Source: a virus. Taken from it: a DNA stretch of 64,000 nucleotides. The stretch is taken from positions 72,877-136,876 of IMG/VR virus record IMGVR_UViG_3300046744_000381. One strand, 5' to 3'. The notes beneath the pieces are model-generated. The model made no database searches. It saw only the letters and a program-made list of their open reading frames with translations, and had not been told where the DNA came from. Position 1 is the stretch's first letter. Each line of letters starts with the position of its first letter. Shown here piece after piece: positions 45,741-64,000 of the stretch. A program made the translations under genes and the position numbers.

Positions 45741-45759
45741 GCTAAACTTTACAAGTTCA

Positions 45760-45785
45760 AAATAGGCCCTACGGGGCCTATTTTT
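45760..45785 (+). terminator. Rho-independent terminator after gp23
   Basis: AAATAGGCCC-TACG-GGGCCTATTT followed by a T run; cUACGg tetraloop. Confidence 0.9.
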
Positions 45786-45814
45786 ATGAGTAAATACCCA
45801 CAAGGAGTAATATA

Positions 45815-46009: not shown

Positions 46010-46033
46010 CTTTTATTTTGTATATGCTATATT
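46006..46033 (+). promoter_or_regulatory. sigma70-like (extended -10) promoter with no downstream ORF
   Basis: TTGACT (46006-11), 16-nt spacer, TATATT (46028-33) preceded by TG at 46025-26. Confidence 0.65.
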
Positions 46034-46039
46034 AAGTAC

Positions 46040-46283
46040 ATAACAAAGACGACGGTCCTAGTTAGATAGTGCAAGGAAGAGAGATAGCAGGTCTCAAACT
46101 TGGCTAGTAGTTGTAGTGACAGCGTATGAGCGTGGAGACACGAAGATGCGACTTTAAACGTAACTGTTTGATACTAGGCTCTTGGTGATTTAGCAGAACA
46201 GACTGCAAAGCCGGGTTGTTGGTATTCTGAAGTCCAACCTATCAACATTATAGAAAAAGGTCTACTTCGGTGGGCCTTTTTTT
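46040..46283 (+). ncRNA. Candidate stand-alone structured small RNA (~240 nt)
   Basis: Bounded by its own promoter and terminator with no ORF in the track; multiple helices including CGTG-GAGA-CACG, and crossing pairings CCTAGT/ACTAGG and GATAG/CTATC. Confidence 0.65.
46254..46283 (+). terminator. Rho-independent terminator
   Basis: AAAAAGGTCTAC-TTCG-GTGGGCC followed by T7; cUUCGg tetraloop. Confidence 0.9.
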
Positions 46284-46315
46284 ACGAACATTATAACCCA
46301 TTTTTTCGAAAAGGA

Positions 46316-46415
46316 TAAATACTATTGTCAGATAGTATGCCGCAAGGCGGACTTATGCTGTACCCGCAGCGTAGCTCATAGAACGGGCATCGGACTTCTA
46401 AACAGGAGAAAACAA
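46316..46415 (+). promoter_or_regulatory. Late promoter plus structured 5' leader (GCAA hairpin and possible pseudoknot)
   Basis: TAAATA at 46316-21; TGCC-GCAA-GGCG; ATGCTG/CAGCGT stem whose loop CCCG is complementary to CGGG at 46384-87; AGGAG SD. Confidence 0.5.
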
Positions 46416-46766
46416 ATGGGAAGACCTATTAATAAAAGAAACTTTGGCGCTACTGGAGCCACCACACCAACAATACCAGTTAGATATCACAACGGATCAT
46501 CAAGTGTAGAAGGTTACATTGTGAATCAAAAAGGTACAAACAAATTTACAGTAACAACTAACGGTTCTGATACATTCGTATGCAGACTTGTTAATGAAGT
46601 TGCTCCAAATGCAGCAGCAGAAATGTCATTAGTTGGCTTAGCAGGCAGTCCTGTTATTCTGAAGAAACTATTCAACAGAACAGCAGTTGATTGGGACGGT
46701 AACCGTTATACTTGGACTACTGAGGACGACTCTACCGAATCATTGTTAAGACTGACAGCCATTTAA
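46416..46766 (+). CDS. Virion structural protein, putative decoration/appendage anchor (116 aa)
   Basis: MGRPINKRNFG...GYIVNQKGTNKF; first gene of the late operon after gp23; strong SD. Confidence 0.55.
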   Translation: MGRPINKRNFGATGATTPTIPVRYHNGSSSVEGYIVNQKGTNKFTVTTNGSDTFVCRLVNEVAPNAAAEMSLVGLAGSPVILKKLFNRTAVDWDGNRYTWTTEDDSTESLLRLTAI

Positions 46767-46777
46767 GGAGTTTCTAA

Positions 46778-47797
46778 ATGGCTCAACGTATCAATAGAAT
46801 CGGCGCAGATTCTTATGTAATCAAAGTAGATAATGGCGGAAGCATTGAATTAGATGTAGGACCAGCAGGTGCTGTCACAGTAACCGGTGATCTTGCAGTT
46901 CAAGGTGAAAGCACATCTATTGGATCTAGTGATCTTGTAGTTGAAGATAATACTATTACTGTCAACGCAGGTGAAACAGGCAGCGGAGTTACATTAAACA
47001 CAGCCGGTTTAATTGTTGAGCGTGGAATCGCAAATGATGCTTACTTCTTCTGGGACGAAAGAGTACAAAGTATTAGTGGCGGAATAGCTCGTCAAGGTAG
47101 TTGGATATTACAAGACTCAACTAATGCTATTAACGGATTAGTTGCATCTAGTATTAGACCAGATACTATAGGAAGTAACAATTTAACTTTACTAGCTGAA
47201 GGTACAGGTATTGTTACAGTTACAGGTACCACTGATTACGAAAAGCAAGTGTATGACTACACAGGCGATGACATTACTACTAATGCCAGTAATCCAACAA
47301 AATTAGTTTTACCAAACGACGATGACGCATTAGTATCGGCTAGATTACTTGAAGACTTTGTAAGAGGATACACAACACAAAACTTACAAACAGGTATTTC
47401 AAAAGGCGATACTACACCTACTAGTGTAAAAACTTTTGACTTTGAAGTTGATTCATCAACAAGTAGAATTGAATTTAAAATCGATGACAATTTGTTAGCA
47501 ACAATGTTTGAGAATCGCTTAGAAATTGGCAATATTAAAATTACTGCTAATTCTATTACATCTAGCGATGTTAATGGCGATGTTGTTCTTGCAGGAGCAG
47601 GTACTGGCGGTGTTAGATTAGATACTGCTACTACTATCAAAAAATTAGCAGACCCAGTTGTACCAACTGATGGAGTTTCGTTATATAGTAAACCATTAGC
47701 AGATGGAGGAACAGGTATATTTTTTGTAAATGAAGATACAACTCAAGACGAACTAGCAAGTCGGAACAAAGCACTACTTTTCAGTATAATATTTTAA
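46778..47797 (+). CDS. Virion fibre-like structural protein (339 aa)
   Basis: VTGDLAVQG...VEDNTITVNAGE...AGLIVERG...FFWDE is a trimeric fibre-type segment also present in 780..2753. Confidence 0.55.
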   Translation: MAQRINRIGADSYVIKVDNGGSIELDVGPAGAVTVTGDLAVQGESTSIGSSDLVVEDNTITVNAGETGSGVTLNTAGLIVERGIANDAYFFWDERVQSISGGIARQGSWILQDSTNAINGLVASSIRPDTIGSNNLTLLAEGTGIVTVTGTTDYEKQVYDYTGDDITTNASNPTKLVLPNDDDALVSARLLEDFVRGYTTQNLQTGISKGDTTPTSVKTFDFEVDSSTSRIEFKIDDNLLATMFENRLEIGNIKITANSITSSDVNGDVVLAGAGTGGVRLDTATTIKKLADPVVPTDGVSLYSKPLADGGTGIFFVNEDTTQDELASRNKALLFSIIF

Positions 47798-47807
47798 AGG
47801 AACAGAA

Positions 47808-48140
47808 ATGGCAATAGTAAACGCACAAATAGCAAGCACAGATACAATATTAATTACTGTCCCAGCAGCTAAGAAATATGCTATAACTACAGTTCTAGTG
47901 TGTAACAACCAGTTTGATGACTCTAGTGGTGCAAATGATACAACATTTGATATGCACGTTATACCAGCTGGTCAAAGTAAAACACTTAGAAATTTAGTTT
48001 TAAATGACTTAAAAGTTGCAGCGGCAGATACATTTACATTTAATGTAGAAAGATTGATTTTAGAGGCAGATGACAGATTAGTGTTTGTAGGTGCTAACCC
48101 ACAAAATTTAAGTGTTACAGTAAGTTATTTGGAAGTATAA
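47808..48140 (+). CDS. Small beta-sandwich virion protein (110 aa)
   Basis: ITVPA...TTVLVCN...LILEADDRL...VTVSYLEV; coupled to the 2830-aa gene. Confidence 0.5.
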   Translation: MAIVNAQIASTDTILITVPAAKKYAITTVLVCNNQFDDSSGANDTTFDMHVIPAGQSKTLRNLVLNDLKVAAADTFTFNVERLILEADDRLVFVGANPQNLSVTVSYLEV

Positions 48141-51100
48141 ATGGATTATTTTAAGAGACAGTCGTTACATAGCAGGTTAATAGGAGACACTAGTGTAACA
48201 TTAACAGCAGATGGCGAAGTCTTAATCGAACCAAGCGGTCGCAAGGTTACGATTGACGGCGACTTAGTTGTTACAGGAAACGCAAGCGGTTCTGAAGTTA
48301 CTGACATACTTTATGTTACCCAAGACGGTAATGATTTAAATGACGGTAAAAGTTTAGGACCAGACGGAGCGAAAGCAACAATTAAAAGTGCTGTCGCTTC
48401 ATCAAGCCCGGGTACTACAATTCTTGTAGGACCAGGAGATTTCTATGAATCAAATCCAATAACTCTACCAGATTTTGTTACTATTAGAGGTACTGGTGAT
48501 TTAAGAAATACTAGAATTTTCCCAAGAAATAATACGCAAACTATTTTCTATATGGGAAATGGTTGTTACTTACACGAACTTACTATGAGAGGGTTAAGAT
48601 ATCCAGGATGGTGTGCTGAAATACGAGAAGGCGCACTTGTAACAACATCACCATATATACAAAACTGTACAAATATGAATGGTCCTTGGTTGAATGACGG
48701 CACAGAATTTATTCCATTCGAAACAGTGCAGATACCAGGAATTGAACCTGGTGCTAAACCATTAATGGTTGAAGATTATCCTGCTTTACCTTCTGGCAAA
48801 CAAGTTAATGACACAGGCGGCGGTGGCGGCCTATATGTTGACGGTAATCAATATGATCCTGCATCACTTGTGTTTAGTTTTGTTGCAGATGCATTTACAC
48901 AAATTGCACAAGGCGGAGTTGGCTTTTGGATTGATAATTTTGGTTACACACAAATTGTTAGTTGTTTCTCAGTATTCTGTAGTGTTGGTTTTAAAACCAC
49001 ACGAGGCGGCTATCTATCTATTTCAAACTCTGTAAGTGACTTTGGATTAAAAGGTATTGAAGCAGACGGATTCTATCCACAAGCATATACAACTGCCAGA
49101 CCACAGCAAGATTATTTTAGTACTGTTGCAAGTGTTACAATTAATACACCTGGTGCAAATTATACTTCTGCTCCTACTGTTGTAATAGAAGGACCATCAA
49201 AAGTTGGAGGCGTAACAGCGACTGCCACTGCATCAATAGACACTACTTCAGGAAAACTAGCTGCTGTTACAATACAACAAGCAGGTAGCGGTTATACTAG
49301 TGTCCCTTTAATTTCATTTAGTGGAGGCGGAGCAACTGCTCAAGCCACAGGCACAATTAATCTTGCCTCTAATGTCACAGTAACCCTAAACAGTTTAAGA
49401 GACAAACCACAAACAGGTAGTATAATTAAATTTGAAGGTGACCCTCTTTATTATTATATTACTGGAACTAATCAAATTAATCCACCTTTTGTTTATGATG
49501 AGGTAGTATGTAGAAGAGATTTACGTAGGATTATTGACGCTGTCACTGCTGATATTGTTTTAGGCACAAGTTATCAATCACAAGCAGCAGCAACAAGTTA
49601 CTTGAGAGCAACATCAAGTAAAGTATTATCAGATCAATTGGCACCAACTGTTTTTGGTATTGAATCGGCTAGAGACGGAATGAAGGCCGAAACTACTAAT
49701 CTAGCAATGGAAGAGCAAATTGATTATTTGTTTAACATAATTACAAGCACAATTAATGAAGGGGACAGTAGTGTACAGCCCGATAATCAAAATGATATTG
49801 CTAATACACTAAACGATCTGAATACTATCGACCCTGCAAGAATTGCTGCAAAAAATAATGTTTTAGAAAATAGAGAGTTTATAGTAGAAGAAGTTGCAGC
49901 ATATGTTAATGATCAGTTTACTGAACTAAGTTATAACCAAGCTGATTATACTAGTGATATGACAACACTTATTAATGGTATTCAAATGTTTGCAGCGTTA
50001 GAAAGTAACCAGCAAATTATTAGACTTGCTCAAGAATACGAAGTACGCACTAGATTCAAACCAATGTTGTTGTCTAGTTTTAGATTCCTAAGCGAAAAAT
50101 TTGAAGCACTAGCCGAAGTACAAGCAAGTACAATTGCATTAACAAATGTTAAAGAAGGCTTCAACCAGTTTATGAATATTATTGATGATGGTGATAGTTC
50201 GGCAAATGTAATTGTATTTCCTGAACACGCAGGAGTTGATAGCAATAGAGCAGATGCTAAAGATCAATTACAAGCAAACAAAAACTTTTTGACAACAGAA
50301 TTTACAACTTTTCTAGCAGCAGAAGCTCCAGGATTTAGTTTTGATGTGGATAATTACAAATTAGATTTTGAAAGAATAATCGATGCTATGACCTTTGACG
50401 TCCTGTACAACGGTAATAGTAGTACAGTTTTAGAAGCTAGATATTATTTTGATAATGGTGCAGACGGAACTTTATTTTCAGATTTAACACCTAATGATAG
50501 AAATGCTATCGTACAATCATATGCACGTATGAGATTTGTAATAGGTAGAGTAGCTAGAGGTTTAGCTGTAACAGCTACAACCGGTAATGGCGTTAGTCAA
50601 GATTTTACAAGCAACAATGCAACACAGAGTGAAGCTGATTTTCTAGATACATTATTGTTTAACATTGAAGATATGATAGATAATGTAACACTAGATAGAT
50701 TGCCTTCAACTTTAACATATCCAACATACGGGGACGAACCTGCGTTACAGGTAGATGCTGCAAATATTATTGAAGCTAGACGTAACGGTTTTATTACTGA
50801 TGCTATATCATATAATTTAGCAAATAATCCAACACTTACATACAATCAAGATAAATGTAAAAGAGATATCGGTTACTTGGTTGATGGAATTAATCGTGAC
50901 ATACTATTAGGTACTAATCATAATAGTATACAGGCAGCTACAGCATATAAACGTGCAAATGTTGCATATCTAAATTCAGAACAAAAACCAGCTACAATTC
51001 TTTCATTAAAATATGCAAAAACATTAGGAATAGCAGCAGTTACAACTAATGATTTAATCAGAGACGATGTTTCAGCAAAATGGGATATAATTCTTGATAT

Positions 51101-54100
51101 TATAGAATTTGATCAATTACCTAGTGTAGGTATTGAATACCCGGATCCTGGTCCTGCAAGTAATGAACTAATTTATGGAGTTGATCAAGTTCTTGCAAAT
51201 AAAGCATTTTTACAAGAAGAAACTGTACAATTTATTAACAATCAATATTTTGTATACAATAGTGCTAAGTGTGAAAGAGATACCGGACTTATTATTGATG
51301 CAGCAGCATATGACACATTGCTTGGTACAAACTACAATGCAGTTACAGCAGGATTATCATATCAAAGAGCAAACAGTGCATATGTTTTAAGTGATCAAAA
51401 TACAGAAACAATCGGCGGTATTAATTTTGCAAAAAGTAGATCCAGTGATGCAACAACACATTCGCCCTCGCAATCAGATGTTGAAGCAGCATTTGACGAA
51501 GTAATTGATATTATACAAAACGGTGCAGTAAGCACACCGCAGGCTGCTGATCCACTTACATTTACAGATCCATCAACTGCATCAACAGCCGAAATAAACA
51601 CAAAATCTCAATTACAAAATAATAGAAATTTTATTGCTGCTGAAACAGTTGCTTACATAAATGAGAATTACGTTAATTTTACATATGACAGTTCAAAATG
51701 TGAAAGAGATATTGGATTAATATTAGATGCAATATCAAAAGATGTTGCACTAGGAACAAACTATAATACTGTAACAGCAGGATTAGCCTACTCAAGAGCC
51801 ACCGCTGCAACTAACAAAGCAGCACAAGGTTTACAAACACTCGAATCATTTAAGTTTGCACGTAAAGAAACAATCGAAAAAGGATTAAGTGATACTGGAG
51901 AAGCAAGGGCATTAGCATCGTGGAATGAAGTTATAGATATATTTGAAAATGGCGTTGTTAGTACAGATACCGCAGCCGATGCTATAACATTTACTACTCC
52001 GGTTGGTGCAAGCCAAGATCTAGAAGATGCAAAAGATCAATTACAAGCAAATAGAGATTTTATTGCAGCTGAGATTGTTGCATATGTAAATGATAACACA
52101 CCGCCGGCAGGTTATAATCAAACTAAATGCAATCGTGATGTAAAATATATTGTAGATGGTTTATCACACGATATACTTTATGGTGGTAACTCAGCAACTA
52201 GACTAGTAGCAGCTAGTTATTTTGAAGGTGCAGTAGCACAACTTCCTGTAAACCAGCTAACACCAACTACTAATGCCTATACACACTTAAAAGATACTGT
52301 GATTCCAGCAATTATCACAAATACTCCACTAACACCTACAACTGGCAACACTGAAACTCAAGACACCACAAACGGTGCAGCAACCGCAACAGAAAGTGCA
52401 GCACTTGAATTATTGGTAGATATTATTATTGATCACATAAATGGCTACGATAATGTTAATCCGTTAGGTGACGAAGTATTACCAAGTGTTACTTGGTCTA
52501 CATCAGAACTGCAACAAGATTACAGCACTATTGTTGCACAGAAGTCAAGTATACAAAGTTTGACAACACAGTTTATTGCAGACACTTTTACTGGATTCAA
52601 CTTTAATAGCACAAAATGCGATAGAGATACAAAGTATATTGTTGATGCATTAACATATGATATATTATACGGTGGCAATAGTGCTACGCTTAATGCTGCA
52701 CGTAGCTATTGGGTAGGTACACAAACACAAGTTGAAGGACAAAAAGCAGAAACTGCAACAGCGTTAGAATATACAGCAACTATATTAAATAAAATTATAC
52801 AAGATCAAGCAGTTGATTATACTTGGCAATCAAGTGAAGCACAAGATACAACTGCTGGTGCAGGAACTACAACAGAAGCAGCAACCGCAGCTAACTTGTT
52901 GCAAATTATACAAGATGTTATAACTGACGGTCTAGATAATTTGCCTACAGAAGTCAAGCCAGATTATGCAACATTTGCAAATGCAGATGTGATTGCTGGA
53001 GTTAATAATTTATTAACAGAAAAAGATACTATTGTAGCAGATACAATTACCTATATTAACACAACTTATAATGGATTTAGCTATGATCAAGAAGTATGTA
53101 AAAGAGACACAGGCTATATTATTGATGCTATTGTACACGATGCTTTCTACGAAGCAAACATTAGCACACTAATAGCAACTCGTGCATACTTCCTAGGTAG
53201 TACACAATACTTGCCAAATGAACAAGTTGCTCCTACAGTAGCAGCATACAACCATTTACAAAGTGTAATTGATGATACTATTCAAGGTGTAGCAGTTATT
53301 CCACAGTCAGGAAATAGTCTATCACAAGTATTGAGCGGCAATTACGGAAATGCAGCAGTAGGAACAACATTTACAAATTTGATTGGTATATTAAAAACAG
53401 CAATAACTAATCAAACTTTAATTGGAACACCGGCTGAAATTGAACCTAATTATACCTGGATTAACCAAGCAACTAGAGACGCAGCAGAATCATTTTTTGT
53501 ACAAAAATCGTATTATGAAACAGAAACAATCAAATACATTGAACAAAATATTTTAGGATTCTCATATAATATTGATAAGTGTAAAAGAGATACAGGTTAT
53601 ATTATTGATGCAGCAATATACGATATGATGTATGGTGGTGATAAACAATCTCGTCGAGCAGCATTAGCATATTATAATGGTGCGATACTTACTGGTATAA
53701 CAGGCGATTATGGAGATCAAACGGGTATCACAGCATATGCAAATAAGTATCTTGCTTCAATTGTAAACAAAGTTTCAAAAAATGAAACAGTTACAAAAAG
53801 TTTTGGTAACCCAGCAACACAACTACTAACCATACCAGATGGAAGTACATTATTAGAAACTGGTGAACTTCCTGGAGCCGAACTAGAATTATTAATTGCT
53901 AGGGTTGCTGATGCAATTGAAGCAAAAACAATGGGCGATTGGTTTGAAAGAGAGCACAATTTAACATTAGGTAATTCAATATTTTTACAAGAACGAAATG
54001 CAATACTTGATGCTGAAGACGATATTGTTGATAATGCCATTAGTTCATTAAACTTAGTATACGGTGGTATTTTTGATATCAACGTATTCCCTGGTGTTAT

Positions 54101-56633
54101 TAGTGTAACCACAGATAAACTTGCAGATTTAAATAATGTTAGTACTGTTAGTACAAGTGGACACGCATTTGAGTATGTCGGTGCTGGTATAACCTACAAT
54201 GCACTTCCATTCTTTGGCGGTACAGCAATACCTGAAACTGAGATTGTAGAATCAAATCAAGGTAAAATATTTGCTGGTGGTACAGTTGACCAAATTGGTA
54301 ACTTTAGAGTTGGTAACTTCTTTGCTGTTAATGCACTTACAGGTGGTATCAGCTTAAATGCTAATGAAATTGACCTAGAAGGTTTGACAAGTGTTGGTCC
54401 GTTTATTAGAAACGGTATTCCAGTTGGTGTTGAATTAAAAGAGGTTAGTGACAACGAAGCATTGTTATCAAGTTTAGGCACACAAGATTTCCAAACAGCA
54501 CCTACACAAAGAGCTGTTTCAAATTATGTTGAAGCAAGATACTTGAACAAAACAACAGGCGGTGATATTGTTGGCGATGTAAGTATGACAGGAGACTTAG
54601 CAGTCAACGGTGATGCAATTACAAGTACAAATACAAGTTTTGAATTCCTTAATACAGGTGTACAAAGCATAGATATGTTAGCTGCGGCAACCACTATTAA
54701 TATTGGTGCTGCAACAGGTACTGTTACAATTAATCCAGATGTTACAATAGAAGGTGTTCTAACTGTTAACGGAAACTTAGTATTTGACGGTGATGTTAAT
54801 ATTAGTATACCAGATGAAACATTACAAGCATATAGTATTACTGAAGGCACTGAAGATTATATAAGCATCAATACTAGAGAAGGTGAAGAAGCAATTACAT
54901 TTGGTGAGCAGCCAAGTGTTATTATTGCCAACCAAACAATATCAACAAGCAAAGACACTGGTGCATTAGTTGTAGACGGCGGTGTTGGTGTTGAAGGCAG
55001 TGTGTTTATAAACACTGATTTAACTGTTACTGCAAACGCAAACCTAGGTGCAGATAGAACTACATCCGAACATACTGTTTCAGGTAAAATAGATATCGAT
55101 ATTCCAGATGATAGTATTAATAATTTTAGAATACACGAAAACATCAGTGAATATGTAAACATCTATACTACAGATGGTGATGAACAAATTCTTTTAGGTA
55201 GTACACCTAAATTAATTATTCTAAACAACACAAACGCTACAGATAACACAACTGGTGCTGTACAAGTCACTGGTGGTATAAGTGCTCAACAAAATATACA
55301 TTCGGGTATTGACGTTGTAGCAGATCGTGATTTGATTGCTGATAGAAATGCTAAAATTAACGGTAGTAATATCACAACCGATTCTACCTCATTTGATGTA
55401 ATAAACACAGTAGCAACAACTGTAAATGCGTTTGGTGATGCTACTACACTTAACATAGGTGGTGCTACTGGCACAATGACAATTGGCAATGAAGTTGTTA
55501 TTATAGATAGTGTAGCAGGTTTACAGATTCCGGTAGGTACTACTTCCGATCGTCCAACTAATGTTACAGGTAGAATCAGATTTAACACTAGTTTAAATGC
55601 ATTTGAAGGTTATGATGGTATAGCTTGGAATACTTTAGGCGGAGTAATTGATGTAGATCAAGATACGAAAATTGTTGCCGAAGATAATCCTGGTGCAGAC
55701 AATGACGAACTAGACTTCTTTACTGGAGGTGTACTTAGAGCTACATTGAGCAGTACATCTTTTGATATTGCAGCAACAAACACTTTAAGTATCGCAAATG
55801 TTACAGAAAGCGAATCAACAACAACAGGTGCATTAACAGTAGCAGGTGGTGTAGGCATTAGTAAAAACTTGCACGTAAATGGATACATTAACGGCAACAC
55901 AAATGGTATACTAACAATTGGTAACTTAGGTAGTGATAAAATCATTATCAAAGGCGAAACAATCGAAACACCTGATACTATAAAACTTATTGCTAATGCT
56001 CCTGACAGTGCAGCTGACGACATTGTATATCCGATGACATTTGCACATCATACAATAAGTGGTGCTATTGTTGCAGGGTCTGGTACAGGTATTAAGTTTG
56101 AATTAGAAACAACAAATGACAATTTTGAAATCGGCGGCCAAATTGAAATAGTATCTCAAGACATTACAGGGTCACAAGAAGACTTTGATATGGTGTTTAG
56201 AACAATGGATGCTGGTAGTACAGGTGTAGAAAAACTACGTTTGAGTGAAACTACAAGTACATTTAGTACAAACGTTCAAGTTGATCAAAACTTATTTGTA
56301 ACTGGTATACTTGATGCAGCAGGATTTAGAGGTAGTATATTTGCAGATGATAGTACCGAAATGCTTGATGCAATTAACAACAAAATTACTGTAACTGATA
56401 TAGCTGCTGGTACACTTTCACTTACTACTGATTTAGAAGTTATACACGGTGGTACAGGCGTAAGTACACTTACCGAAGATGGTATTATGTATGGTGCAGG
56501 AACAGGAACAGTGCAAGTTACAGCAGCAGCTGGTACAGCAGATGCTTCAGAAACATTCCAAGTACTTACTGTAACAAGCGATTCAGATGCGACTCCAATT
56601 TGGTCTGACACTATAGATGGTGGTAGCTTCTAA
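48141..56633 (+). CDS. Giant virion fibre/appendage protein: beta-helix, 10 phycobiliprotein-like (globin-fold) repeats and a fibre shaft (2830 aa)
   Basis: YVxxDGNDxNDG...KATIKSA start; SPYIQN/DAFTQ/QIVSCF beta-helix motifs; repeats of Yxxx(K)CxRDxxxIxDAxxxDxxxGxN; TGALxVxGGVG shaft repeats; C-terminal IDGGSF. Confidence 0.75.
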   Translation: MDYFKRQSLHSRLIGDTSVTLTADGEVLIEPSGRKVTIDGDLVVTGNASGSEVTDILYVTQDGNDLNDGKSLGPDGAKATIKSAVASSSPGTTILVGPGDFYESNPITLPDFVTIRGTGDLRNTRIFPRNNTQTIFYMGNGCYLHELTMRGLRYPGWCAEIREGALVTTSPYIQNCTNMNGPWLNDGTEFIPFETVQIPGIEPGAKPLMVEDYPALPSGKQVNDTGGGGGLYVDGNQYDPASLVFSFVADAFTQIAQGGVGFWIDNFGYTQIVSCFSVFCSVGFKTTRGGYLSISNSVSDFGLKGIEADGFYPQAYTTARPQQDYFSTVASVTINTPGANYTSAPTVVIEGPSKVGGVTATATASIDTTSGKLAAVTIQQAGSGYTSVPLISFSGGGATAQATGTINLASNVTVTLNSLRDKPQTGSIIKFEGDPLYYYITGTNQINPPFVYDEVVCRRDLRRIIDAVTADIVLGTSYQSQAAATSYLRATSSKVLSDQLAPTVFGIESARDGMKAETTNLAMEEQIDYLFNIITSTINEGDSSVQPDNQNDIANTLNDLNTIDPARIAAKNNVLENREFIVEEVAAYVNDQFTELSYNQADYTSDMTTLINGIQMFAALESNQQIIRLAQEYEVRTRFKPMLLSSFRFLSEKFEALAEVQASTIALTNVKEGFNQFMNIIDDGDSSANVIVFPEHAGVDSNRADAKDQLQANKNFLTTEFTTFLAAEAPGFSFDVDNYKLDFERIIDAMTFDVLYNGNSSTVLEARYYFDNGADGTLFSDLTPNDRNAIVQSYARMRFVIGRVARGLAVTATTGNGVSQDFTSNNATQSEADFLDTLLFNIEDMIDNVTLDRLPSTLTYPTYGDEPALQVDAANIIEARRNGFITDAISYNLANNPTLTYNQDKCKRDIGYLVDGINRDILLGTNHNSIQAATAYKRANVAYLNSEQKPATILSLKYAKTLGIAAVTTNDLIRDDVSAKWDIILDIIEFDQLPSVGIEYPDPGPASNELIYGVDQVLANKAFLQEETVQFINNQYFVYNSAKCERDTGLIIDAAAYDTLLGTNYNAVTAGLSYQRANSAYVLSDQNTETIGGINFAKSRSSDATTHSPSQSDVEAAFDEVIDIIQNGAVSTPQAADPLTFTDPSTASTAEINTKSQLQNNRNFIAAETVAYINENYVNFTYDSSKCERDIGLILDAISKDVALGTNYNTVTAGLAYSRATAATNKAAQGLQTLESFKFARKETIEKGLSDTGEARALASWNEVIDIFENGVVSTDTAADAITFTTPVGASQDLEDAKDQLQANRDFIAAEIVAYVNDNTPPAGYNQTKCNRDVKYIVDGLSHDILYGGNSATRLVAASYFEGAVAQLPVNQLTPTTNAYTHLKDTVIPAIITNTPLTPTTGNTETQDTTNGAATATESAALELLVDIIIDHINGYDNVNPLGDEVLPSVTWSTSELQQDYSTIVAQKSSIQSLTTQFIADTFTGFNFNSTKCDRDTKYIVDALTYDILYGGNSATLNAARSYWVGTQTQVEGQKAETATALEYTATILNKIIQDQAVDYTWQSSEAQDTTAGAGTTTEAATAANLLQIIQDVITDGLDNLPTEVKPDYATFANADVIAGVNNLLTEKDTIVADTITYINTTYNGFSYDQEVCKRDTGYIIDAIVHDAFYEANISTLIATRAYFLGSTQYLPNEQVAPTVAAYNHLQSVIDDTIQGVAVIPQSGNSLSQVLSGNYGNAAVGTTFTNLIGILKTAITNQTLIGTPAEIEPNYTWINQATRDAAESFFVQKSYYETETIKYIEQNILGFSYNIDKCKRDTGYIIDAAIYDMMYGGDKQSRRAALAYYNGAILTGITGDYGDQTGITAYANKYLASIVNKVSKNETVTKSFGNPATQLLTIPDGSTLLETGELPGAELELLIARVADAIEAKTMGDWFEREHNLTLGNSIFLQERNAILDAEDDIVDNAISSLNLVYGGIFDINVFPGVISVTTDKLADLNNVSTVSTSGHAFEYVGAGITYNALPFFGGTAIPETEIVESNQGKIFAGGTVDQIGNFRVGNFFAVNALTGGISLNANEIDLEGLTSVGPFIRNGIPVGVELKEVSDNEALLSSLGTQDFQTAPTQRAVSNYVEARYLNKTTGGDIVGDVSMTGDLAVNGDAITSTNTSFEFLNTGVQSIDMLAAATTINIGAATGTVTINPDVTIEGVLTVNGNLVFDGDVNISIPDETLQAYSITEGTEDYISINTREGEEAITFGEQPSVIIANQTISTSKDTGALVVDGGVGVEGSVFINTDLTVTANANLGADRTTSEHTVSGKIDIDIPDDSINNFRIHENISEYVNIYTTDGDEQILLGSTPKLIILNNTNATDNTTGAVQVTGGISAQQNIHSGIDVVADRDLIADRNAKINGSNITTDSTSFDVINTVATTVNAFGDATTLNIGGATGTMTIGNEVVIIDSVAGLQIPVGTTSDRPTNVTGRIRFNTSLNAFEGYDGIAWNTLGGVIDVDQDTKIVAEDNPGADNDELDFFTGGVLRATLSSTSFDIAATNTLSIANVTESESTTTGALTVAGGVGISKNLHVNGYINGNTNGILTIGNLGSDKIIIKGETIETPDTIKLIANAPDSAADDIVYPMTFAHHTISGAIVAGSGTGIKFELETTNDNFEIGGQIEIVSQDITGSQEDFDMVFRTMDAGSTGVEKLRLSETTSTFSTNVQVDQNLFVTGILDAAGFRGSIFADDSTEMLDAINNKITVTDIAAGTLSLTTDLEVIHGGTGVSTLTEDGIMYGAGTGTVQVTAAAGTADASETFQVLTVTSDSDATPIWSDTIDGGSF

Positions 56634-56740: not shown

Positions 56741-59700
56741 ATGGCAACAAAGATTAGACACAAGCGTAGTGCGGTGGCTGGTAAACAGCCGTTAGTTTCT
56801 CAATTAGAATCAGGTGAATTAGCAATCAACACAGCAGATGGTAAAGTATACCTATTGCGTGATGATAACACTGTACAAGATATTACAAGAAGAGTATTTG
56901 AAGGAAATACACAATTAGAAGTAGATGACTTAGGTGATAGTACATCAGCTGCAATTACTGCAACTGTTAACAACGACTTAAAAATGTCAGTTACTGATAA
57001 TGGTATATTTTTAAACGATGATATTAGTATTAATAATGCAAATACATTAACGTTCAAAGAACTTACAGGTTCTGGTGCTGATGGTATTTCATTAAAATCT
57101 CCGGATACGCTTGACGCAGGGTACAACCTTACATTGCCTCCACAAGTAGGTACTACTGGTCAGCTTATAGCTACAGACGCACAAGGAAATTTATTCTTCC
57201 AAGATGCAGATATTTTCGGCGGTAACGTTGTTTATGTTAGTGCCGAACAAGGCGATGATGCAAACGATGGTCAAAGTGCTCCAGTTAAAACTGTAAAACG
57301 TGCGTGTCAAATTGCTTCAGGTTTGATTTACAATGCCGATGGCACTACTAATGGTACACGAGTAAACGTAAAAGTTGCAGTTGGTGACTATACCGAGGAC
57401 AACCCTATTATTGTTCCAGATAACACAGTTATCAAAGGTGACGGTTTGCGTGGTTGTATTATTCGTCCTGCAAACGCTAACAGAGATATTTTACGTGTTA
57501 GAAATGCTTGTTACTTTGGTGAATTTACATTCCGTGATGGCGTCGACGAAAATCAAGTTCCTTTAATTACTGCTGATTATGCTGTGGCATTTGATGATCC
57601 GTTTGATGCTAATATTACTGATCGTGCTGATTATACAAACTTGCCTGACACAAGACCTTTTATTACTACTTCACCTTATATTCAAAATGCTTCAATTTTG
57701 TCCTTCTTAGGTATGAATGGTGCAAAAATTGATGGTAGCAAAGTTACTTCACCGAACATTGGTTTTATTCCACAAGAGCAAGAAAATCCAGTAGTTGGCG
57801 CAATACCTGAGCAAGGTAAATCAATGGTTGCCAACGCCTTTACTATTCTATCATTTGGTGGTACAGCGTGGCGACTAACCAACGATGCTTATGCACAGAT
57901 CGTGTCTTGTTTTGAAATCTTCCTACTAAATGGTGTTTATTGTCAGTCAGGTGGTTATTGTTCCATTACTAACTCCGCTACAAACTTTGGATTGTATGCG
58001 TTGAGATCTAGTGGTTATTCACCAAAAGCATTTGAATTTGACCGTGCATTTGTTACAGGTACAGGTGCTTTTGAAGGTTTACAGACAGTTAGTATTGTAG
58101 GTATCAACAGAGATACACCAGTTGAAGAATTTGTTTTACGCTTCAGAGAAGCCGATTATAAAACAGCATACGAAAGATTGCTAGTTGAAAAAGATCAAAT
58201 TGCAGCAGATACTGTTACTTGGATCAATCAACAAATAGCAGCAGCATCGCCAAGTATATGGGCATCATTTGAGTATGATCAAACAAAATGTGCTAGAGAT
58301 GTAGGATTGTTAGTAGATGCTATCAGGTGGGATGCTGCATTTGATACTAATTATAGATCAGTTAGTTCTGCACTTACATATTTTAACGGTAGATTTCCTT
58401 CTGCCTTGTTTGCTGCACAAAAAGCACAACACATAGAAGCATTTACACAAGCAAAATCGTTTACAACTAATATTACACAACAATCTACATATGACTCTCG
58501 TGTTAACGCACTTTGGGACGAAATTATTGAAATTTTAGATAATGACAAAACATTTACACCAACTACAGGAACAACATACGATCCTAACACAGGAATATTA
58601 GTTGCTAATATCGGTGCACACAATCTGACCGTAGGTACATCGATAATTATTGCTGATAATAGTTTGACGTTTACTTGTGCATCAGATGGCAACACTGCTC
58701 AAGTAACATATCCAAGATCAACTGATCCGGCATCAAAAACAGCATTGACAATTTCTGCTGTGACATCTGATACCATTACTGTAAACGTTGGAACAAGTAG
58801 CGAAACATCTGCACATACATTTATAACATCAGCTGCTAATAGTGTTACTATTGAAGGTGTCGGTGTTACTGGACTTACTGATCCAACTGGATATAATAGT
58901 AGCTACCTGGCAGGTTACGGAGATGCCAGAACGCAATTAGAAAGCAACAGAAATTTTCTTATAAAAGAAATTACTGCCTGGATTGCTGTACAAGTTGCTG
59001 GAGAAATATCACCATTTGTATCTACGTTTTCATACGATGTTGCTCAGTGCGAAAATGATATAGGATTAATTTTAGATGCATTGAGATATGATCTAACATA
59101 CGGTGGTAATTTACAAACTTTTGATGCAGCAATACAATATTTTGTTGGTACAACAAAACAACTTGCTGATGGTCAAAAAGATGCAACATTAGCTTCTTAC
59201 GCAAGATTAAAAGAAATTATCGGCCAAGTTATTCTTGAACAAGCGGTAACAGTATCCGCTGGTAATGCTTTGACTCAAGACACATCCGGAACAGCAGGTA
59301 GCAGCGATGCGTCTAATGCTGCAAAAGATAGAATACAAGAAATTATTGATTATGTTGATAGCGATGGTGCAACTCCTCCAACTAAAATTGAACCAGGTAC
59401 AACTTGGGTTTCAGCCGCACTTGTAGAAGATAAAGATAGACTATATCCTGAAGCACAAAAAAATATTGGACAAAATGTTAACGCATACATTGAAACACAA
59501 GTAGATGCTGCACAGTGGTATAACTTTACATACGATAATTCAAAATGTTTACGTGATACAAAACTGATTGTTGAAGCTGTTGCAAAAGATGCTTGGGATA
59601 CAGGTAACAGATATTCACGTAGTGCTGGTTTATCTTACTACAATAAAAACATTGGCGATAGTTCGCAGATTAGTATTAGTGGACAAGAAAGACAAACTAT

Positions 59701-62700
59701 AAGTGCTATTAATCAAGCCAAGGCATTAACATTAGCAGAAATTACAAGTCTGTCATTAGCATCACGAAATTTTGTAGGTAGTAGATTTGACATAGTAACA
59801 ACTATTATTAATGATGGTGATGATTTACCAGATGCACAAGATGTAAGTTCAGAAGGCGATATTACAAACGATTTTAAAACCAATGCTACCGAAAGTACAT
59901 TTAATGGTTCAACGGATGTAAACGTAAATGTTGATGTATTTACAATTGTAGATCACGGATTTACTAACGGACAAAAAGTAATTTATGATCCAGATAACAA
60001 TCCAGTCATACAAGGACTAGATGCAGAACAAACATATTATATTAAAATTATTAATGATGACGAATTTAGTTTAACATTTGACGAATCGGGCGATTTTGAT
60101 GTTAATGTTCTTGCTACAAGTACCGGTACACATAAATTTTTATCAGGTGTTATTGAATTCTTTGTAAATGAGATTACTGATTCGCATACAACTTATCAAA
60201 CATTAGAATTAGAATCGGGTTCTGAGAGTTATGAGTTTGTACCGGGTAGACAGATTACCGGTGTTACAGGTACAAGTAATAATGCTGCTATTGTGTTTAG
60301 TTGGAAGCCTGCCATAAGAGAACTTATAGTTAGTATAGAACAAGTAGCAGTTGGTCAAAGTTTGTTGCGTATCCAATTCGACGAAACTAGTACTATTACA
60401 GCAGATCACGCTGGCACACCAAATACCACTATTGGTGTAAATGCTGCGCAATCTAAATTAGGACTTGGTACTGCAACTTTTGCTATTAAAGCAACTGACG
60501 GTAGTAGTTCTTTAAGTAACCTATCAGCCTTACCAGAAAATCAGGTTTGGTTCCACAGACCAAGTATTGTTAACTCATCATCACACACTTGGGAATATGC
60601 AGGTTCAGGTACAGACTATAACGCATTACCACAAAACGGCGGTAACACAAAAAGTGAATTTGAACAGTTTGAAGAACTACCCGGTCGTGTTTACTCTTCA
60701 GGTACAAACGAACTTGGTGACTTTAAAGTTGGTGACTTTATTACAGCGTTTAACAGAACAGGTAATATCACATTTAGAAACAAAGTTCAGGTTGATGAAC
60801 TTGATGCTTTGAGACTAAGTTTGTCAGATGTTGCAATTGAAGAAATTTCAACAAGTGTAAACTTAGGCGATGACGAGCTAGGTGGTGCAAGTAATGCAAG
60901 ACTTTCAACTCAGTTAGCTGTTAGAGCATTTATTAGTAATAGATTAGGAGGCTTTGTTGACAAAACTGTGTCAACTGCTGCTGTTCCGGGTGCCATTGTT
61001 CAATTAAACACAAATGGACAACTTAATGGAGACTTAATTCCAGCAACACGTCAGTTTACAAATACCAACACACAAGGTTATCAATCAAGACTTGAACAAG
61101 TTGATAATATACCACCTGTTGATTTGAAAGCTGGTGACATTGCTACAGAAAATTATGAACAAGTAGAACTTACTCTAAGTGGAAATATTAGTGCTGCTGA
61201 CGGAGCTATTATTACACAACCTACTGCATTTGGCGCAACTGGTTATGCCAAAGGACTATATGGTAACAGCGGTAACATTCTTGTAGCAAGTATTGGCGGT
61301 GAATGGATTGTTGGAGACGATAGTACAGGCTCACAATTCCAAACTGGTGTTGGAAACAACATTTTTGTTGACGGTGTTGACAGTGGTGTATATCCTACAG
61401 GTATTGGTCTATCAAGTCAAGTTATTGACAACTTCTTTTTAAGAAGTTCTAATTCAAGTCAATTCCTGATACTAGATCCAACAGATGATTATACATTTAC
61501 TACAAATACAATTACAAACTTAGAACGTACTTCAAATGTTACAACTGCTACAACAAGCGGTGCTCACAATCTCTTAATTGGTAATCAAATCAGTATTACC
61601 TGTTCTGATAATGAAACTTTTGAAACAAATGGACAAGTTATTAGTACGCCAACAAGTACAACATTTACATATTCAAATGTAGATCCGGATGACGTTGCAA
61701 GTTTTGCTGTATCTGACGGTTTTGTTGGCAGTGTTGTAAGAAGTGCTGACGGTAATGCTCAGGGTAGAGTAACTGAATTGAGAGAAGGTGTGTTATCAGG
61801 TATTGATAATTCTAATATTACAGGCGGTACTTTATACACTCCAACAGTAGGAAACCAAACATATCTCGATGTAGTATTAACAAATGTAACAGGAAGTGGT
61901 ACGGGTGCTACAGCAGATATTACAGTCACAGCGGGACAAGTTACCGATGTTGATATTAAAACAGGCGGCACAGGTTATGCGATTGGAGATTTATTAAGTG
62001 CAGCTTCTAGTAGTGTAGGAAACACAGGAAGTGGATTCCAGATAGAAGTTACTGCTTTTGAAAAACGTGCTTACATTGACATTATTGGCGGCGAACTTTT
62101 TGTTGCAAGTAGTTCAAGTGTTGACTTTGTAGAAGATAACACTGCTGTACAAACGGCACGAGACATAAACTTAGATGATTTTATCACACATAACTTCTTA
62201 GCAGGTTCTTCCGGCGCAGGCGGTGCTGTTGACTATACCAACTTTAGAATTACCATACCAAATCACGGATACTCAAATGGTGATCCATTAAAATACGATA
62301 CATTAGGTAATGCTCCAATCGGTGGTATTTTGAACGGACAAGTTGTTTATGCAAAATTCATAGACAATAATACAATTGAATTGTACGAAGGATTTGCACT
62401 ACTTAACAAAATAGAATTTGCAAGTACTCCTGCTAACAACAATCATAATTTGACAAGAAGTACAGTTAACATAACTGACAACAGCGTTATTATCGAGAAT
62501 CACGGATACACAACAGCCGATGCTGTTAGATTAAACACACTATCAGACGGTAGTTCAAGTAATGCATTACCTATAGTTGATGGTGCCGATCCTATTCCAG
62601 ACGGTTCTAGATTCTTTGTTGGTTCTGTAACTACTAACTCATTTACACTACACGTTCTACGCAGTGATGCTCTAAGCAGTATTAATGATCTTGTAACAAA

Positions 62701-64000
62701 TCCAGAAGATTTAACAAGTGTAGGAATTGGTACTGCTAGAAGTACACGAAGTAATGCTCAAGTTACAGGTCAAATTAATACATCAAGTAGATTAAAGAAA
62801 AATTGGAATACACTCGCTGTTACAAATATTGATGCTGAAAATATTATTTCAGGTATTATATCACCAAGTAGACTTGGCGGTAGCGGTGTTCCAAATAGTG
62901 ACACATTCCTAAGAGGTGATAGTGCATATTCTGTTGTTGTACAAAAACTTAAAAAGGCAAGTACAACTGAAAACCCAATTACACTTGTAGGCAATAGCGT
63001 AAGTCAAGAGTTTTACGGCACTGTTAGTATTGGTGTCAATAATGTTGACCTTGATCCGGGCGGAACATTCTCTACACTAGGTGTTTCAAAATTTTTACAA
63101 TCACAATTTGATGTAAACGCTAATGCTAGTGGCGAAGTATTCCTTAAAGATGGTGTTGTTGATGCTGGTACACTGGATTCATTAGATAGTGCATACTTTC
63201 TTAATCCTGCAAACTTAACAAGTCCTGTTCCTGTAAACAGAGGAGGGACAAACATTACTTCTTATGCTAGAGGCGATTTGCTTTATGCAGAAACAACTGG
63301 TACACTTAATCCATTATCTATAGGTAGAAACAATGCTATCTTAAAATCAAACGGTGAAACACCTGAATGGGGCACAGCACTTGATCTTGCAGAAGGATTA
63401 GACGTTGGTGCTGCTGCACTTACTTCTGCAAGCACAGGTAGTGGTACTGTATATAATGATAATGTCACAAGTTTAAATATTGGCGGCGATGCAACTAATA
63501 TCGATATAGGTAGTACAGAAGGTACAAGAAACTTATTTCCATTTTTAGACGGATATGATGCTAGTGCAAGTCAAAATGTTGTAGGTAATTTAAAAAGCAT
63601 AACTGCTACCACAAATGATCCAACTGACAACGGATTAAACGAAATTCCATTAGATGATACATCTAGTGTACTTGCAGGAATGATTGTAACTGGAAGTGGT
63701 AGTATCCCTGCAAACACAACAGTAAGCGGTGTTACAGGTGATTACATTTATTTAAGCAACAATACAACTGGTACTATTTTAAGTGGAGCAACATTAACAT
63801 TTACATACACACCAAAAACACTTGGTATCGATGTAGGTGATACAATTAATATTGGCTCAAGTACAAAAACTAATCTAGACGGTACTTGGCCAATAATTGG
63901 TGCTACATCTAATGCTACATCGTTTACATTCCAGACTGATGCAAATGTTACATCAAATCCAGTTGATGTTCCTGCAGGCCAATTAACTATAAACGCAAAC
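56741..64000 (+). CDS. Giant virion fibre/appendage protein, paralog of 48141..56633 (>2420 aa, runs off the window; not in the ORF track)
   Basis: ATG at 56741 after AGGAGG; starts MATKIRHKRSAVAGKQP...GELAINTADGKVY (Mtd_N-like). The frame is open wherever checked (58289, 59048, 59546, 63902-64000). Shares SPYIQN, QIVSCF, HxxEYxGxG and GxFxVG with the upstream gene and has 3 Cys-bearing globin-like repeats. Confidence 0.85.
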   Translation, partial: MATKIRHKRSAVAGKQPLVSQLESGELAINTADGKVYLLRDDNTVQDITRRVFEGNTQLEVDDLGDSTSAAITATVNNDLKMSVTDNGIFLNDDISINNANTLTFKELTGSGADGISLKSPDTLDAGYNLTLPPQVGTTGQLIATDAQGNLFFQDADIFGGNVVYVSAEQGDDANDGQSAPVKTVKRACQIASGLIYNADGTTNGTRVNVKVAVGDYTEDNPIIVPDNTVIKGDGLRGCIIRPANANRDILRVRNACYFGEFTFRDGVDENQVPLITADYAVAFDDPFDANITDRADYTNLPDTRPFITTSPYIQNASILSFLGMNGAKIDGSKVTSPNIGFIPQEQENPVVGAIPEQGKSMVANAFTILSFGGTAWRLTNDAYAQIVSCFEIFLLNGVYCQSGGYCSITNSATNFGLYALRSSGYSPKAFEFDRAFVTGTGAFEGLQTVSIVGINRDTPVEEFVLRFREADYKTAYERLLVEKDQIAADTVTWINQQIAAASPSIWASFEYDQTKCARDVGLLVDAIRWDAAFDTNYRSVSSALTYFNGRFPSALFAAQKAQHIEAFTQAKSFTTNITQQSTYDSRVNALWDEIIEILDNDKTFTPTTGTTYDPNTGILVANIGAHNLTVGTSIIIADNSLTFTCASDGNTAQVTYPRSTDPASKTALTISAVTSDTITVNVGTSSETSAHTFITSAANSVTIEGVGVTGLTDPTGYNSSYLAGYGDARTQLESNRNFLIKEITAWIAVQVAGEISPFVSTFSYDVAQCENDIGLILDALRYDLTYGGNLQTFDAAIQYFVGTTKQLADGQKDATLASYARLKEIIGQVILEQAVTVSAGNALTQDTSGTAGSSDASNAAKDRIQEIIDYVDSDGATPPTKIEPGTTWVSAALVEDKDRLYPEAQKNIGQNVNAYIETQVDAAQWYNFTYDNSKCLRDTKLIVEAVAKDAWDTGNRYSRSAGLSYYNKNIGDSSQISISGQERQTISAINQAKALTLAEITSLSLASRNFVGSRFDIVTTIINDGDDLPDAQDVSSEGDITNDFKTNATESTFNGSTDVNVNVDVFTIVDHGFTNGQKVIYDPDNNPVIQGLDAEQTYYIKIINDDEFSLTFDESGDFDVNVLATSTGTHKFLSGVIEFFVNEITDSHTTYQTLELESGSESYEFVPGRQITGVTGTSNNAAIVFSWKPAIRELIVSIEQVAVGQSLLRIQFDETSTITADHAGTPNTTIGVNAAQSKLGLGTATFAIKATDGSSSLSNLSALPENQVWFHRPSIVNSSSHTWEYAGSGTDYNALPQNGGNTKSEFEQFEELPGRVYSSGTNELGDFKVGDFITAFNRTGNITFRNKVQVDELDALRLSLSDVAIEEISTSVNLGDDELGGASNARLSTQLAVRAFISNRLGGFVDKTVSTAAVPGAIVQLNTNGQLNGDLIPATRQFTNTNTQGYQSRLEQVDNIPPVDLKAGDIATENYEQVELTLSGNISAADGAIITQPTAFGATGYAKGLYGNSGNILVASIGGEWIVGDDSTGSQFQTGVGNNIFVDGVDSGVYPTGIGLSSQVIDNFFLRSSNSSQFLILDPTDDYTFTTNTITNLERTSNVTTATTSGAHNLLIGNQISITCSDNETFETNGQVISTPTSTTFTYSNVDPDDVASFAVSDGFVGSVVRSADGNAQGRVTELREGVLSGIDNSNITGGTLYTPTVGNQTYLDVVLTNVTGSGTGATADITVTAGQVTDVDIKTGGTGYAIGDLLSAASSSVGNTGSGFQIEVTAFEKRAYIDIIGGELFVASSSSVDFVEDNTAVQTARDINLDDFITHNFLAGSSGAGGAVDYTNFRITIPNHGYSNGDPLKYDTLGNAPIGGILNGQVVYAKFIDNNTIELYEGFALLNKIEFASTPANNNHNLTRSTVNITDNSVIIENHGYTTADAVRLNTLSDGSSSNALPIVDGADPIPDGSRFFVGSVTTNSFTLHVLRSDALSSINDLVTNPEDLTSVGIGTARSTRSNAQVTGQINTSSRLKKNWNTLAVTNIDAENIISGIISPSRLGGSGVPNSDTFLRGDSAYSVVVQKLKKASTTENPITLVGNSVSQEFYGTVSIGVNNVDLDPGGTFSTLGVSKFLQSQFDVNANASGEVFLKDGVVDAGTLDSLDSAYFLNPANLTSPVPVNRGGTNITSYARGDLLYAETTGTLNPLSIGRNNAILKSNGETPEWGTALDLAEGLDVGAAALTSASTGSGTVYNDNVTSLNIGGDATNIDIGSTEGTRNLFPFLDGYDASASQNVVGNLKSITATTNDPTDNGLNEIPLDDTSSVLAGMIVTGSGSIPANTTVSGVTGDYIYLSNNTTGTILSGATLTFTYTPKTLGIDVGDTINIGSSTKTNLDGTWPIIGATSNATSFTFQTDANVTSNPVDVPAGQLTINAN

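Follow-up and report, generated by a model that had tools for sequence, protein, structure and literature searches.

The locus and its repeat array

The stretch of DNA analysed here, hereafter the window, makes up the final 64 kb of the 136,876-bp IMG/VR virus record IMGVR_UViG_3300046744_000381, whose completeness is estimated by CheckV at 38%. Our subject is a giant open reading frame (ORF) of 2830 aa on its plus strand, and in particular the array of tandem domains that the encoded protein contains. The ORF lies downstream of the portal, prohead protease and major head genes and beside baseplate genes and a second giant structural ORF. It matches PHROGs of tail-fibre and virion-structural proteins (phrog_5342, E 2.6e-84; phrog_4527; phrog_701; phrog_17885; phrog_9851), and by this membership together with its place in the structural module its product is predicted to be a tail-fibre-type virion structural protein. 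Near-identical proteins of 2830 aa are found in metagenomes.

Alignment with MAFFT combined with a hidden Markov model (HMM) of the repeat divided aa 412-1936 (nt 49374-53948) into ten consecutive units of 137-167 aa, each of them recovered at domain E-values between 1e-41 and 4e-54 by a profile that was built from these repeats themselves. Eight units carry the motif C-x-R-D (at aa 457, 906, 1044, 1187, 1330, 1493, 1653 and 1814), the count expected by chance from the composition of the protein being 0.027, and in the other two, repeats 2 and 3, the Cys and the Arg have been lost. The entire protein has 13 Cys, namely five at aa 142-280 and the eight of the motif, with none beyond aa 1814. 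The initial annotation of this DNA had described ten helical repeats, two of them degenerate, in a protein otherwise poor in Cys outside a part that it called the beta-helix; the repeats and the motif are confirmed, and the eight Cys codons that it listed are exactly those found here. The parts of the gene are as follows.

48141..56633, plus strand: giant ORF, 2830 aa, tail-fibre-type virion protein with the domain array (PHROG matches)
48141..49373, plus strand: N-terminal region, aa 1-411, with five non-motif Cys (PHROG tail-fibre matches to aa 8-317)
49374..49811, plus strand: repeat 1, aa 412-557, CRRD, Cys codon 49509 (motif and repeat HMM)
49821..50228, plus strand: repeat 2, aa 561-696, degenerate, YTSD (repeat HMM)
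50229..50729, plus strand: repeat 3, aa 697-863, degenerate, YKLD (repeat HMM)
50730..51149, plus strand: repeat 4, aa 864-1003, CKRD, Cys codon 50856 (motif and repeat HMM)
51150..51578, plus strand: repeat 5, aa 1004-1146, CERD, Cys codon 51270 (motif and repeat HMM)
51573..52007, plus strand: repeat 6, aa 1145-1289, CERD, Cys codon 51699 (motif and repeat HMM)
52002..52490, plus strand: repeat 7, aa 1288-1450, CNRD, Cys codon 52128, the copy used for modelling (motif and repeat HMM)
52491..52967, plus strand: repeat 8, aa 1451-1609, CDRD, Cys codon 52617 (motif and repeat HMM)
52971..53453, plus strand: repeat 9, aa 1611-1771, CKRD, Cys codon 53097 (motif and repeat HMM)
53454..53948, plus strand: repeat 10, aa 1772-1936, CKRD, Cys codon 53580 (motif and repeat HMM)
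53949..56633, plus strand: C-terminal Cys-free fibre region, aa 1937-2830 (phrog_9851 at aa 2001-2136; phrog_701)

One relative of the protein (P0012) has a DUF1565 match at its N-terminus.

The repeats as very probable distant relatives of phycobiliproteins

Phycobiliproteins serve cyanobacteria, red algae and cryptophytes as antenna proteins, and soluble bacterial paralogues of them have been found recently. We modelled repeat 7 with AlphaFold2 without templates, from an alignment of 48 rows (the ten repeats and one copy from each of 38 relatives), and obtained a model with a predicted local distance difference test (pLDDT) score of 94.5 and a predicted template modelling (pTM) score of 0.90, with helices at residues 5-31, 40-60, 64-71, 83-105 and 129-147. 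When the PDB was searched with this model using Foldseek, all the rows listed were phycobiliproteins or fluorescent proteins derived from them (best E 5.5e-3, TM scores 0.52-0.67, 154-173 columns). The VIA-align structure search, which is independent of Foldseek and covered 48,161 representative chains, gave phycobiliproteins at all of ranks 1 to 8, with Z 11.9-13.9. Among these were allophycocyanin 8or7_A (Z 13.9, root-mean-square deviation (rmsd) 2.2 over 121 residues), phycoerythrin 5aqd_M (Z 13.9, rmsd 2.5 over 138 residues) and the bilin domain of ApcE, 4xxi_A (Z 13.5). Both searches of the model therefore put phycobiliproteins first, as the globin-like phycobiliprotein fold proposed in the initial annotation would predict, and the modelled structure supports such a fold, with helices A-B-E-F-G-H, for the repeats.

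Residues 1..147 of the model align in VIA-align from chain residues 29-47 onward. Because the structure and sequence alignments both begin near phycobiliprotein residue 30, the modelled phage domain is without the N-terminal X-Y hairpin, the element that builds the phycobiliprotein alpha-beta monomer, and keeps the globin core helices A to H. A two-domain AlphaFold2 model from an 8-row paralogue alignment (pLDDT 56.5, pTM 0.55) was too poor for interdomain geometry, the prediction of a trimer from three copies of repeat 7 had a score of 0.00 and weighs neither way, and a search of the ESM Atlas yielded no usable match.

Profile-profile comparison provided evidence that does not depend on the model. 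When compared by hhalign with four CpcA/CpcB sequences encoded on an Acaryochloris plasmid, the repeats aligned with a probability of 84% and E 7e-6, C43 of the domain being placed on Cys84. In 100 column-shuffled controls the highest score was 18.9 compared with the 38.9 observed, so that none of the 100 reached it. A greedier alignment was collinear over 113 columns (q2-146 to t32-161) and paired the same segments of helices G and H that the initial annotation had cited for phycocyanin, bearing out its claim of a match in order along the domain. Both hhalign and HMMER with the 48-row profile set CxRD in register with Cys84/Arg86/Asp87, and the structure and sequence alignments (VIA-align and hhalign) agree on this register; the earlier equation of the motif with these three residues is in this way confirmed. 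In the HMMER search of the PDB with the 48-row profile, three of the five matches were phycocyanin, phycoerythrocyanin beta and CpcA, all at the Cys84 segment and none significant (E 0.1-0.93). A precomputed match to the Pfam family PF00502 (Phycobilisome protein; gathering cut-off 22.2 bits) is carried by 27 of the 120 relatives listed, and when relatives were rescanned 12 of 12 lay above the cut-off (24.9-50.1 bits) through the sum of weak stretches, the best of which span profile positions 27-152.

Several results weigh against this relationship. PF00502 gave no match at E<=1 with the whole 2830-aa protein and none at E<=10 with any of the ten single repeats, while HMMER with a profile of the ten repeats found no phycobiliprotein in the PDB. 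Foldseek returned no match to the repeat 7 model in the PDB at E<=0.001. In VIA-align the sensor globins come close behind at Z 11.1 (4zva_A), with a photocobilin, 8j2w_B, at Z 10.9, and the program itself warns that unrelated helical models can score Z ~13-14 by architecture alone, for which reason the fold result needs the support of the sequence evidence. Taking the structure searches, the profile alignments and these nulls together, we conclude that the repeats are distant relatives of cyanobacterial phycobiliproteins in which the pigment-attachment site is mostly kept, and that all ten very probably belong to the phycobiliprotein or bilin-binding globin lineage (the PF00502 family).

Conservation of the CxRD site

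Conservation was counted over 1305 domain copies in 151 proteins. The best-kept positions are D57 (99%), D46 (98%), Y73 (98%), C43 (94%), R45 (94%) and T89 (88%), followed by N63 (82%) and D52 (79%). His occurs in no column conserved at 60% or more and, given that haem globins need a proximal His, haem-type ligation is unlikely. Comparison of the 1226 copies that have the Cys with the 78 that lack it gave the following retention at other positions.

R45: kept in 97% with Cys, 42% without
D46: kept in 99.9% with Cys, 63% without
Y73: kept in 99.8% with Cys, 74% without
T89: kept in 91% with Cys, 46% without
Y38: kept in 85% with Cys, 71% without
D57 (control position): kept in 99.8% with Cys, 94% without

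Among the 78 copies without the Cys, 47 have an aromatic residue (F, Y or W) in its place. Orthologous degenerate copies are counted repeatedly in these numbers, which inflates the computed p-values, and we rely on the pattern alone: the site of Cys, Arg and Asp is kept or abandoned as a unit.

Distribution of the domain among phages

A profile search of 1.84 billion representative proteins retrieved 1405 proteins at E<=1e-3, of which 565 at E<=1e-30, these being cluster representatives at 50% identity. Up to 36 domain copies occur in one protein among the best 150 of the 1405 matches, and the source names are all 'hypothetical protein' among the matches listed. The repeat 7 model matched, in BFVD, pieces of 'structural', 'tail' and 'tail fiber' proteins of cyanophages and uncultured phages (TM scores 0.74-0.86), and tblastn with two of the repeats matched 68 isolate phage records, all labelled cyanophage or marine. 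In 23 complete genomes searched with the profile, 16 carry 1-11 copies; of 20 T4-like isolate cyanomyoviruses (Kyanoviridae, Eurybiavirus), 15 have between 2 and 11 profile matches each, and S-SKS1 has one match. Similar repeats in the structural proteins of other marine phages, which the initial annotation had mentioned, are hence amply found.

The same annotation had treated the window as T4-like, a placement that was not borne out. The capsid protein shares 65-70% identity with its counterparts in Vibrio phage 2.275.O, Sinorhizobium phage Phosso, PA5oct and Serratia phage BF, which are jumbo phages of heterotrophs, and 81-96% with capsid proteins on many uncultured aquatic contigs. Judged by this comparison, in which the nearest capsid proteins are from jumbo phages, the phage of the window is an uncultured aquatic jumbo phage of another lineage than the T4-like cyanophages. 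Of 12 partial contigs from the window's jumbo-phage clade, nine gave domain copies in the profile search, and four cultured jumbo relatives gave none. The domain is thus a widespread, unannotated fibre module present in at least two phage lineages, the cyanomyoviruses and the window's jumbo-phage clade. Our literature search, in which subscription journals were thinly covered and supplements lay outside the search, found no paper describing such domains in phage fibres.

A search for related loci with the single protein gave only 3 close relatives. Searching species genomes for a degenerate DNA motif produced 20 matches, 19 of them true copies of the domain and all inside metagenome bins with many different labels. 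We rejected these labels as evidence of hosts, as the copies in such bins are probably mis-binned phage contigs.

Further copies lie in the window itself, in the ORF that follows the array.

56741..64000, plus strand: second giant tail-fibre-type ORF, open at the end of the window and of the record (phrog_5342, E 1.7e-205)
58142..58591, plus strand: domain copy 1 of this ORF, aa 468-617, CARD (repeat HMM, independent E-value 2e-25)
58913..59401, plus strand: domain copy 2, aa 725-887, without CxRD (repeat HMM, independent E-value 3.7e-30)
59402..59860, plus strand: domain copy 3, aa 888-1040, CLRD (repeat HMM, independent E-value 4.5e-20)

Bilin synthesis genes, CpeT and adsorption

A contig of 335,231 bp from the window's clade, with a capsid protein 86% identical to that of the window, encodes both the domain, in four copies within a 2933-aa ORF, and a putative route to bilins: at 49472-51766 of its locus L327 (G020:C57) a haem oxygenase (78.8 bits), a CN-hydrolase and a ferredoxin-dependent bilin reductase (68.2 bits) stand in a row. 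This pair of enzymes fits the question raised in PMC11480375 about phage hemO and pcyA/X, which is stated there as an open one, namely why phages that probably infect heterotrophs carry hemO together with pcyA or pcyX. Neither psbA nor CpeT was found in the bin of this contig. The bin is labelled Neomarinimicrobiota, a label that may be due to mis-binning of a jumbo-phage contig. The adjacency of haem oxygenase and bilin reductase genes in the bin Water_Bin34 was examined and rejected: the three hemO-reductase contig regions retrieved are without a domain copy and belong to other contigs than those bearing the domain.

Other genomic observations count against a pigment on the domain. Genes for ho1, pcyA/pebS and cpeT, which the initial annotation had proposed to seek in the rest of the genome, did not appear in the 38%-complete record: a Pfam scan of its other 86 ORFs found no haem oxygenase, ferredoxin-dependent bilin reductase, CpeT, PF00502 or psbA, and the record as a whole (137 kb) has none of them. 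The 12 partial contigs of the clade gave 0 haem oxygenases, 0 bilin reductases, 0 CpeT and 0 psbA. P-SSM2 has the haem oxygenase and bilin reductase and is without the domain, and S-PM2, Syn9, S-RSM4 and Syn1 have the domain and neither enzyme. CpeT was considered as a partner of the domain. Over 23 complete genomes 13 have both, 3 the domain only, none CpeT only and 7 neither (Fisher p 5e-4). A gp23 tree was built for 22 of the 23 genomes; S-TIM5, in which PF07068 matched nothing, was excluded, and the row for Syn19, whose end branch is 10 units long, probably represents the wrong ORF. Two changes of state fall on this tree for the domain and three for CpeT, giving 2 independent pairs of which 1 is in the same direction (sign test p 1). 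With about one independent contrast on this tree, we rejected the association as evidence and keep it as a lead.

The cpeT gene lies upstream of a giant domain-bearing fibre gene on the same strand, by 1-2 kb in S-PM2, S-RSM4 and Syn1 and by 4 kb in contig G015, at the following positions.

S-PM2: cpeT 163961-164470, domain gene 166345-170355
S-RSM4: cpeT 176535-177038, domain gene 162121-175569
Syn1: cpeT 19950-20462, domain gene 21726-26177
Contig G015: cpeT 24216-24713, domain gene 29021-30304

Since S-PM2, S-RSM4 and Syn1 form one clade on the gp23 tree, this placement may be a single arrangement. Short CpeT genes (134-224 aa) were also observed in P-SSM4 (16642-17064), P-HM1 (19050-19397) and Syn9 (15539-15946), where PF06206 is matched in two pieces with the middle of the profile left out; a 2010 review gives P-SSM4 as being without cpeT (PMC2984593).

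Light is required for the adsorption of P-HM1, P-HM2 and S-PM2, and P-SSM2 adsorbs in the dark, according to PMC6628666, where it is left open whether host receptors or phage tail fibres are responsible. We counted 4 domain copies in P-HM1, 5 in P-HM2, 9 in S-PM2 and none in P-SSM2. Because these four phages fall in two clades, and thus amount to about one independent contrast, the link between the domain and light-dependent adsorption is a lead and not evidence.

Other features of the record

A further giant ORF of 4592 aa occupies 5402-19180 on the minus strand, adjoining baseplate wedge and hub genes and matching phrog_10938 (virion structural protein); it contains neither a copy of the phycobiliprotein-like domain nor CxRD. 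At 33284-33709 on the plus strand, between SbcCD-like nuclease genes and the next module, a 141-aa ORF matches an NAD-synthetase-labelled PHROG as well as homing-endonuclease PHROGs.

Outside the window, the same record holds at ~37,400-57,400 (G000:C1, loci L015-L017) a cluster of about nine radical-SAM enzymes, one with a SPASM domain, together with three ORFs resembling Asp/Asn beta-hydroxylases, two nitroreductases and one SET-domain protein; a fourth such hydroxylase-like ORF precedes the cluster at ~30,900-31,500. The cluster looks like a factory for peptide or protein modification. In the first of these loci a subtilase fused to a plastocyanin/azurin-type copper domain (L015:9605-11539, plus strand) is followed by a fatty-acid desaturase (L015:11574-12191, plus strand).

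Comparison with known systems

The phage domain resembles phycobiliproteins (allophycocyanin, phycocyanin, phycoerythrin and the ApcE bilin domain) in its globin-type helices A to H (Z 12-13.9, rmsd 2.2-2.5 A) and in the K-C-x-R-D-x-G-Y ... G-G motif, which is in register with Cys84/Arg86/Asp87. It differs from them in beginning, in the model, at about residue 30 of their chains, without the X-Y hairpin, in having invariant residues of its own (D57, Y73 and T89) and in an identity of 12-21%. Whereas phycobiliproteins are free alpha and beta subunits of 160-180 aa in the thylakoid antenna, the phage domain occurs as 10-36 tandem copies in a fibre protein of 2000-6000 aa that is predicted to belong to the virion, where a chromophore on it would be conjectural.

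The bilin biosynthesis-associated globins (BBAGs) of non-photosynthetic bacteria are phycobiliprotein paralogues; BBAG-1 and BBAG-3, sister to the phycobiliproteins, are described as possessing CXRD and attaching bilins without a lyase (PMC10151467). A role of CXRD in bilin attachment has been shown experimentally in the two nearest lineages (PMC10151467). The phage domain shares the CXRD with BBAG-1 and BBAG-3. BBAGs are linked in their genomes to haem oxygenase and a bilin reductase; in the phage clade both enzymes accompany the domain on the 335,231-bp relative, and neither is present in the 38%-complete record of the window or on the 12 partial contigs. BBAGs are single-domain cytoplasmic proteins, unlike the fibre arrays, and the likeness is drawn here from their published description only (PMC10151467). 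Photocobilin (photoglobin) domains and sensor globins (DosC, HemAT, RsbR) are built on the same globin-type architecture (8j2w_B, Z 10.9; 4zva_A, Z 11.1) and rank in VIA-align below all eight phycobiliprotein representatives. The photoglobin/BBAG-2 lineage is described as lacking CXRD (PMC10151467), which the phage domain has. From the haem globins the phage domain differs in having no conserved His. The giant fibre-like proteins of cyanomyoviruses (PHROG 5342, 4527 and 701; S-RSM4 SRSM4_214; Syn1_101), whose annotations go no further than tail fibre, structural or hypothetical, have domains of this family too, the difference being that the protein of the window comes from a jumbo-phage lineage and not from a cyanomyovirus.

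What the domain may do

The structural half of the interpretation offered in the initial annotation (the fold, the collinearity and the register of CxRD) stands on the results above; its functional half, that a ligand is bound, that it is a bilin or pigment and that it has a given role, is what we infer. The mechanism that we consider the most likely, and advance tentatively, is that the CxRD copies bind a linear tetrapyrrole (bilin). Each C-x-R-D copy would bind it during folding of the fibre in the infected cell, the motif Cys forming a thioether to ring A of the bilin, whose pyrrole nitrogens and a propionate would be held by the Asp and Arg in the manner of the Cys84 site in phycobiliproteins. 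Attachment might be autocatalytic, as in the BBAGs, or be performed by a host or phage lyase, and the bilin could be supplied by the host or by a phage haem oxygenase and bilin reductase; each chain of the fibre would then bear about eight chromophores. Such a pigment could serve in light sensing that gates adsorption, in photoprotection or in domain stabilisation. As a single explanation of why the CxRD site is conserved and varies together, covalent bilin binding is the one towards which we lean, with reserve.

The main rival, a chromophore-free structural module, which the initial annotation had also raised in the form of a repurposed spacer, is a real possibility, if a somewhat doubtful one. 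Under this explanation the fibre took up a domain of phycobiliprotein or globin type as a rigid helical bead, for added length or spacing, and C, R, D, D57, Y73 and T89 would be kept for a network of hydrogen bonds and salt bridges within or between domains. The wide variation in copy number, up to the 36 stretches per protein noted above, is as expected of a spacer that sets length, and the X-Y hairpin of phycobiliprotein assembly is absent. Two observations on the site itself count here against bilin attachment as well: D57, Y73 and T89 are features of the phage family that are not in the aligned Acaryochloris CpcA/CpcB and could mark a different, structural role, and D46 is kept in both degenerate repeats, 2 and 3, that have lost Cys and Arg. 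Likewise S-PM2, Syn9, S-RSM4, Syn1 and 9 partial contigs of the clade carry the domain with no bilin-synthesis genes in their available sequence. A structural role accounts less easily for the fact that the best-kept residues include, in register, the three with which phycobiliproteins hold the bilin, and that these decay with loss of the Cys while the control D57 does not. In addition, a lone unpaired Cys in each domain, 94% conserved, is unusual for a purely structural extracellular module.

That the cluster of C, R, D, D57 and Y73 binds something other than a bilin, be it a metal ion, a molecule of the host surface or the same face of the neighbouring chain in a trimeric fibre, we regard as improbable. 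The likeness to the bilin site would then be inherited but reused. Trimeric tail fibres with ions bound along the axis are common, and D52, D57, N63 and T89, at the conservation given above, could form a site for a cation or a polar ligand. The lack of His in the conserved columns makes haem-type ligation unlikely, nothing positive points to any particular alternative ligand, and the part of CXRD in bilin attachment has experimental support in the two nearest lineages (PMC10151467). Finally, an artefact in which a generic helical bundle with a chance CxRD-like motif was drawn to the phycobiliprotein fold by the training set of AlphaFold might be suspected from the Foldseek E-values of 5.5e-3 or weaker, from the Z ~13-14 that helical models often reach and from the poor two-domain model, but is very unlikely, as a sequence method independent of the model agrees with the fold far above 100 shuffles, PF00502 exceeds its curated cut-off in 12 of 12 relatives over stretches reaching beyond the motif, and structure and sequence alignments give the same register.

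Returning to bilin attachment, its strongest form, in which virions carry covalent bilins on the domain arrays of their fibres as the phage's own photoreceptor or pigment, seems unlikely. If it were true, fibre bilins would explain why the adsorption of some cyanomyoviruses depends on light and yet is independent of host photosynthesis, and why haem oxygenase and bilin reductase occur without a known acceptor in phages other than cyanophages (PMC11480375); possibly they would also explain what phage CpeT acts on.

Tandem phycobiliprotein-type domains in phage fibres, with 1405 representatives, would constitute a new context for this fold. Should no pigment bind, they would still show clearly how a light-harvesting fold can be put to new use in building a virion. 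The domain family would moreover be a concrete candidate acceptor for bilins made by phages, and with S-PM2, P-HM1 and P-HM2 available as cultured carriers, the questions about phage bilin genes (PMC11480375) and about light-dependent adsorption (PMC6628666) become testable.

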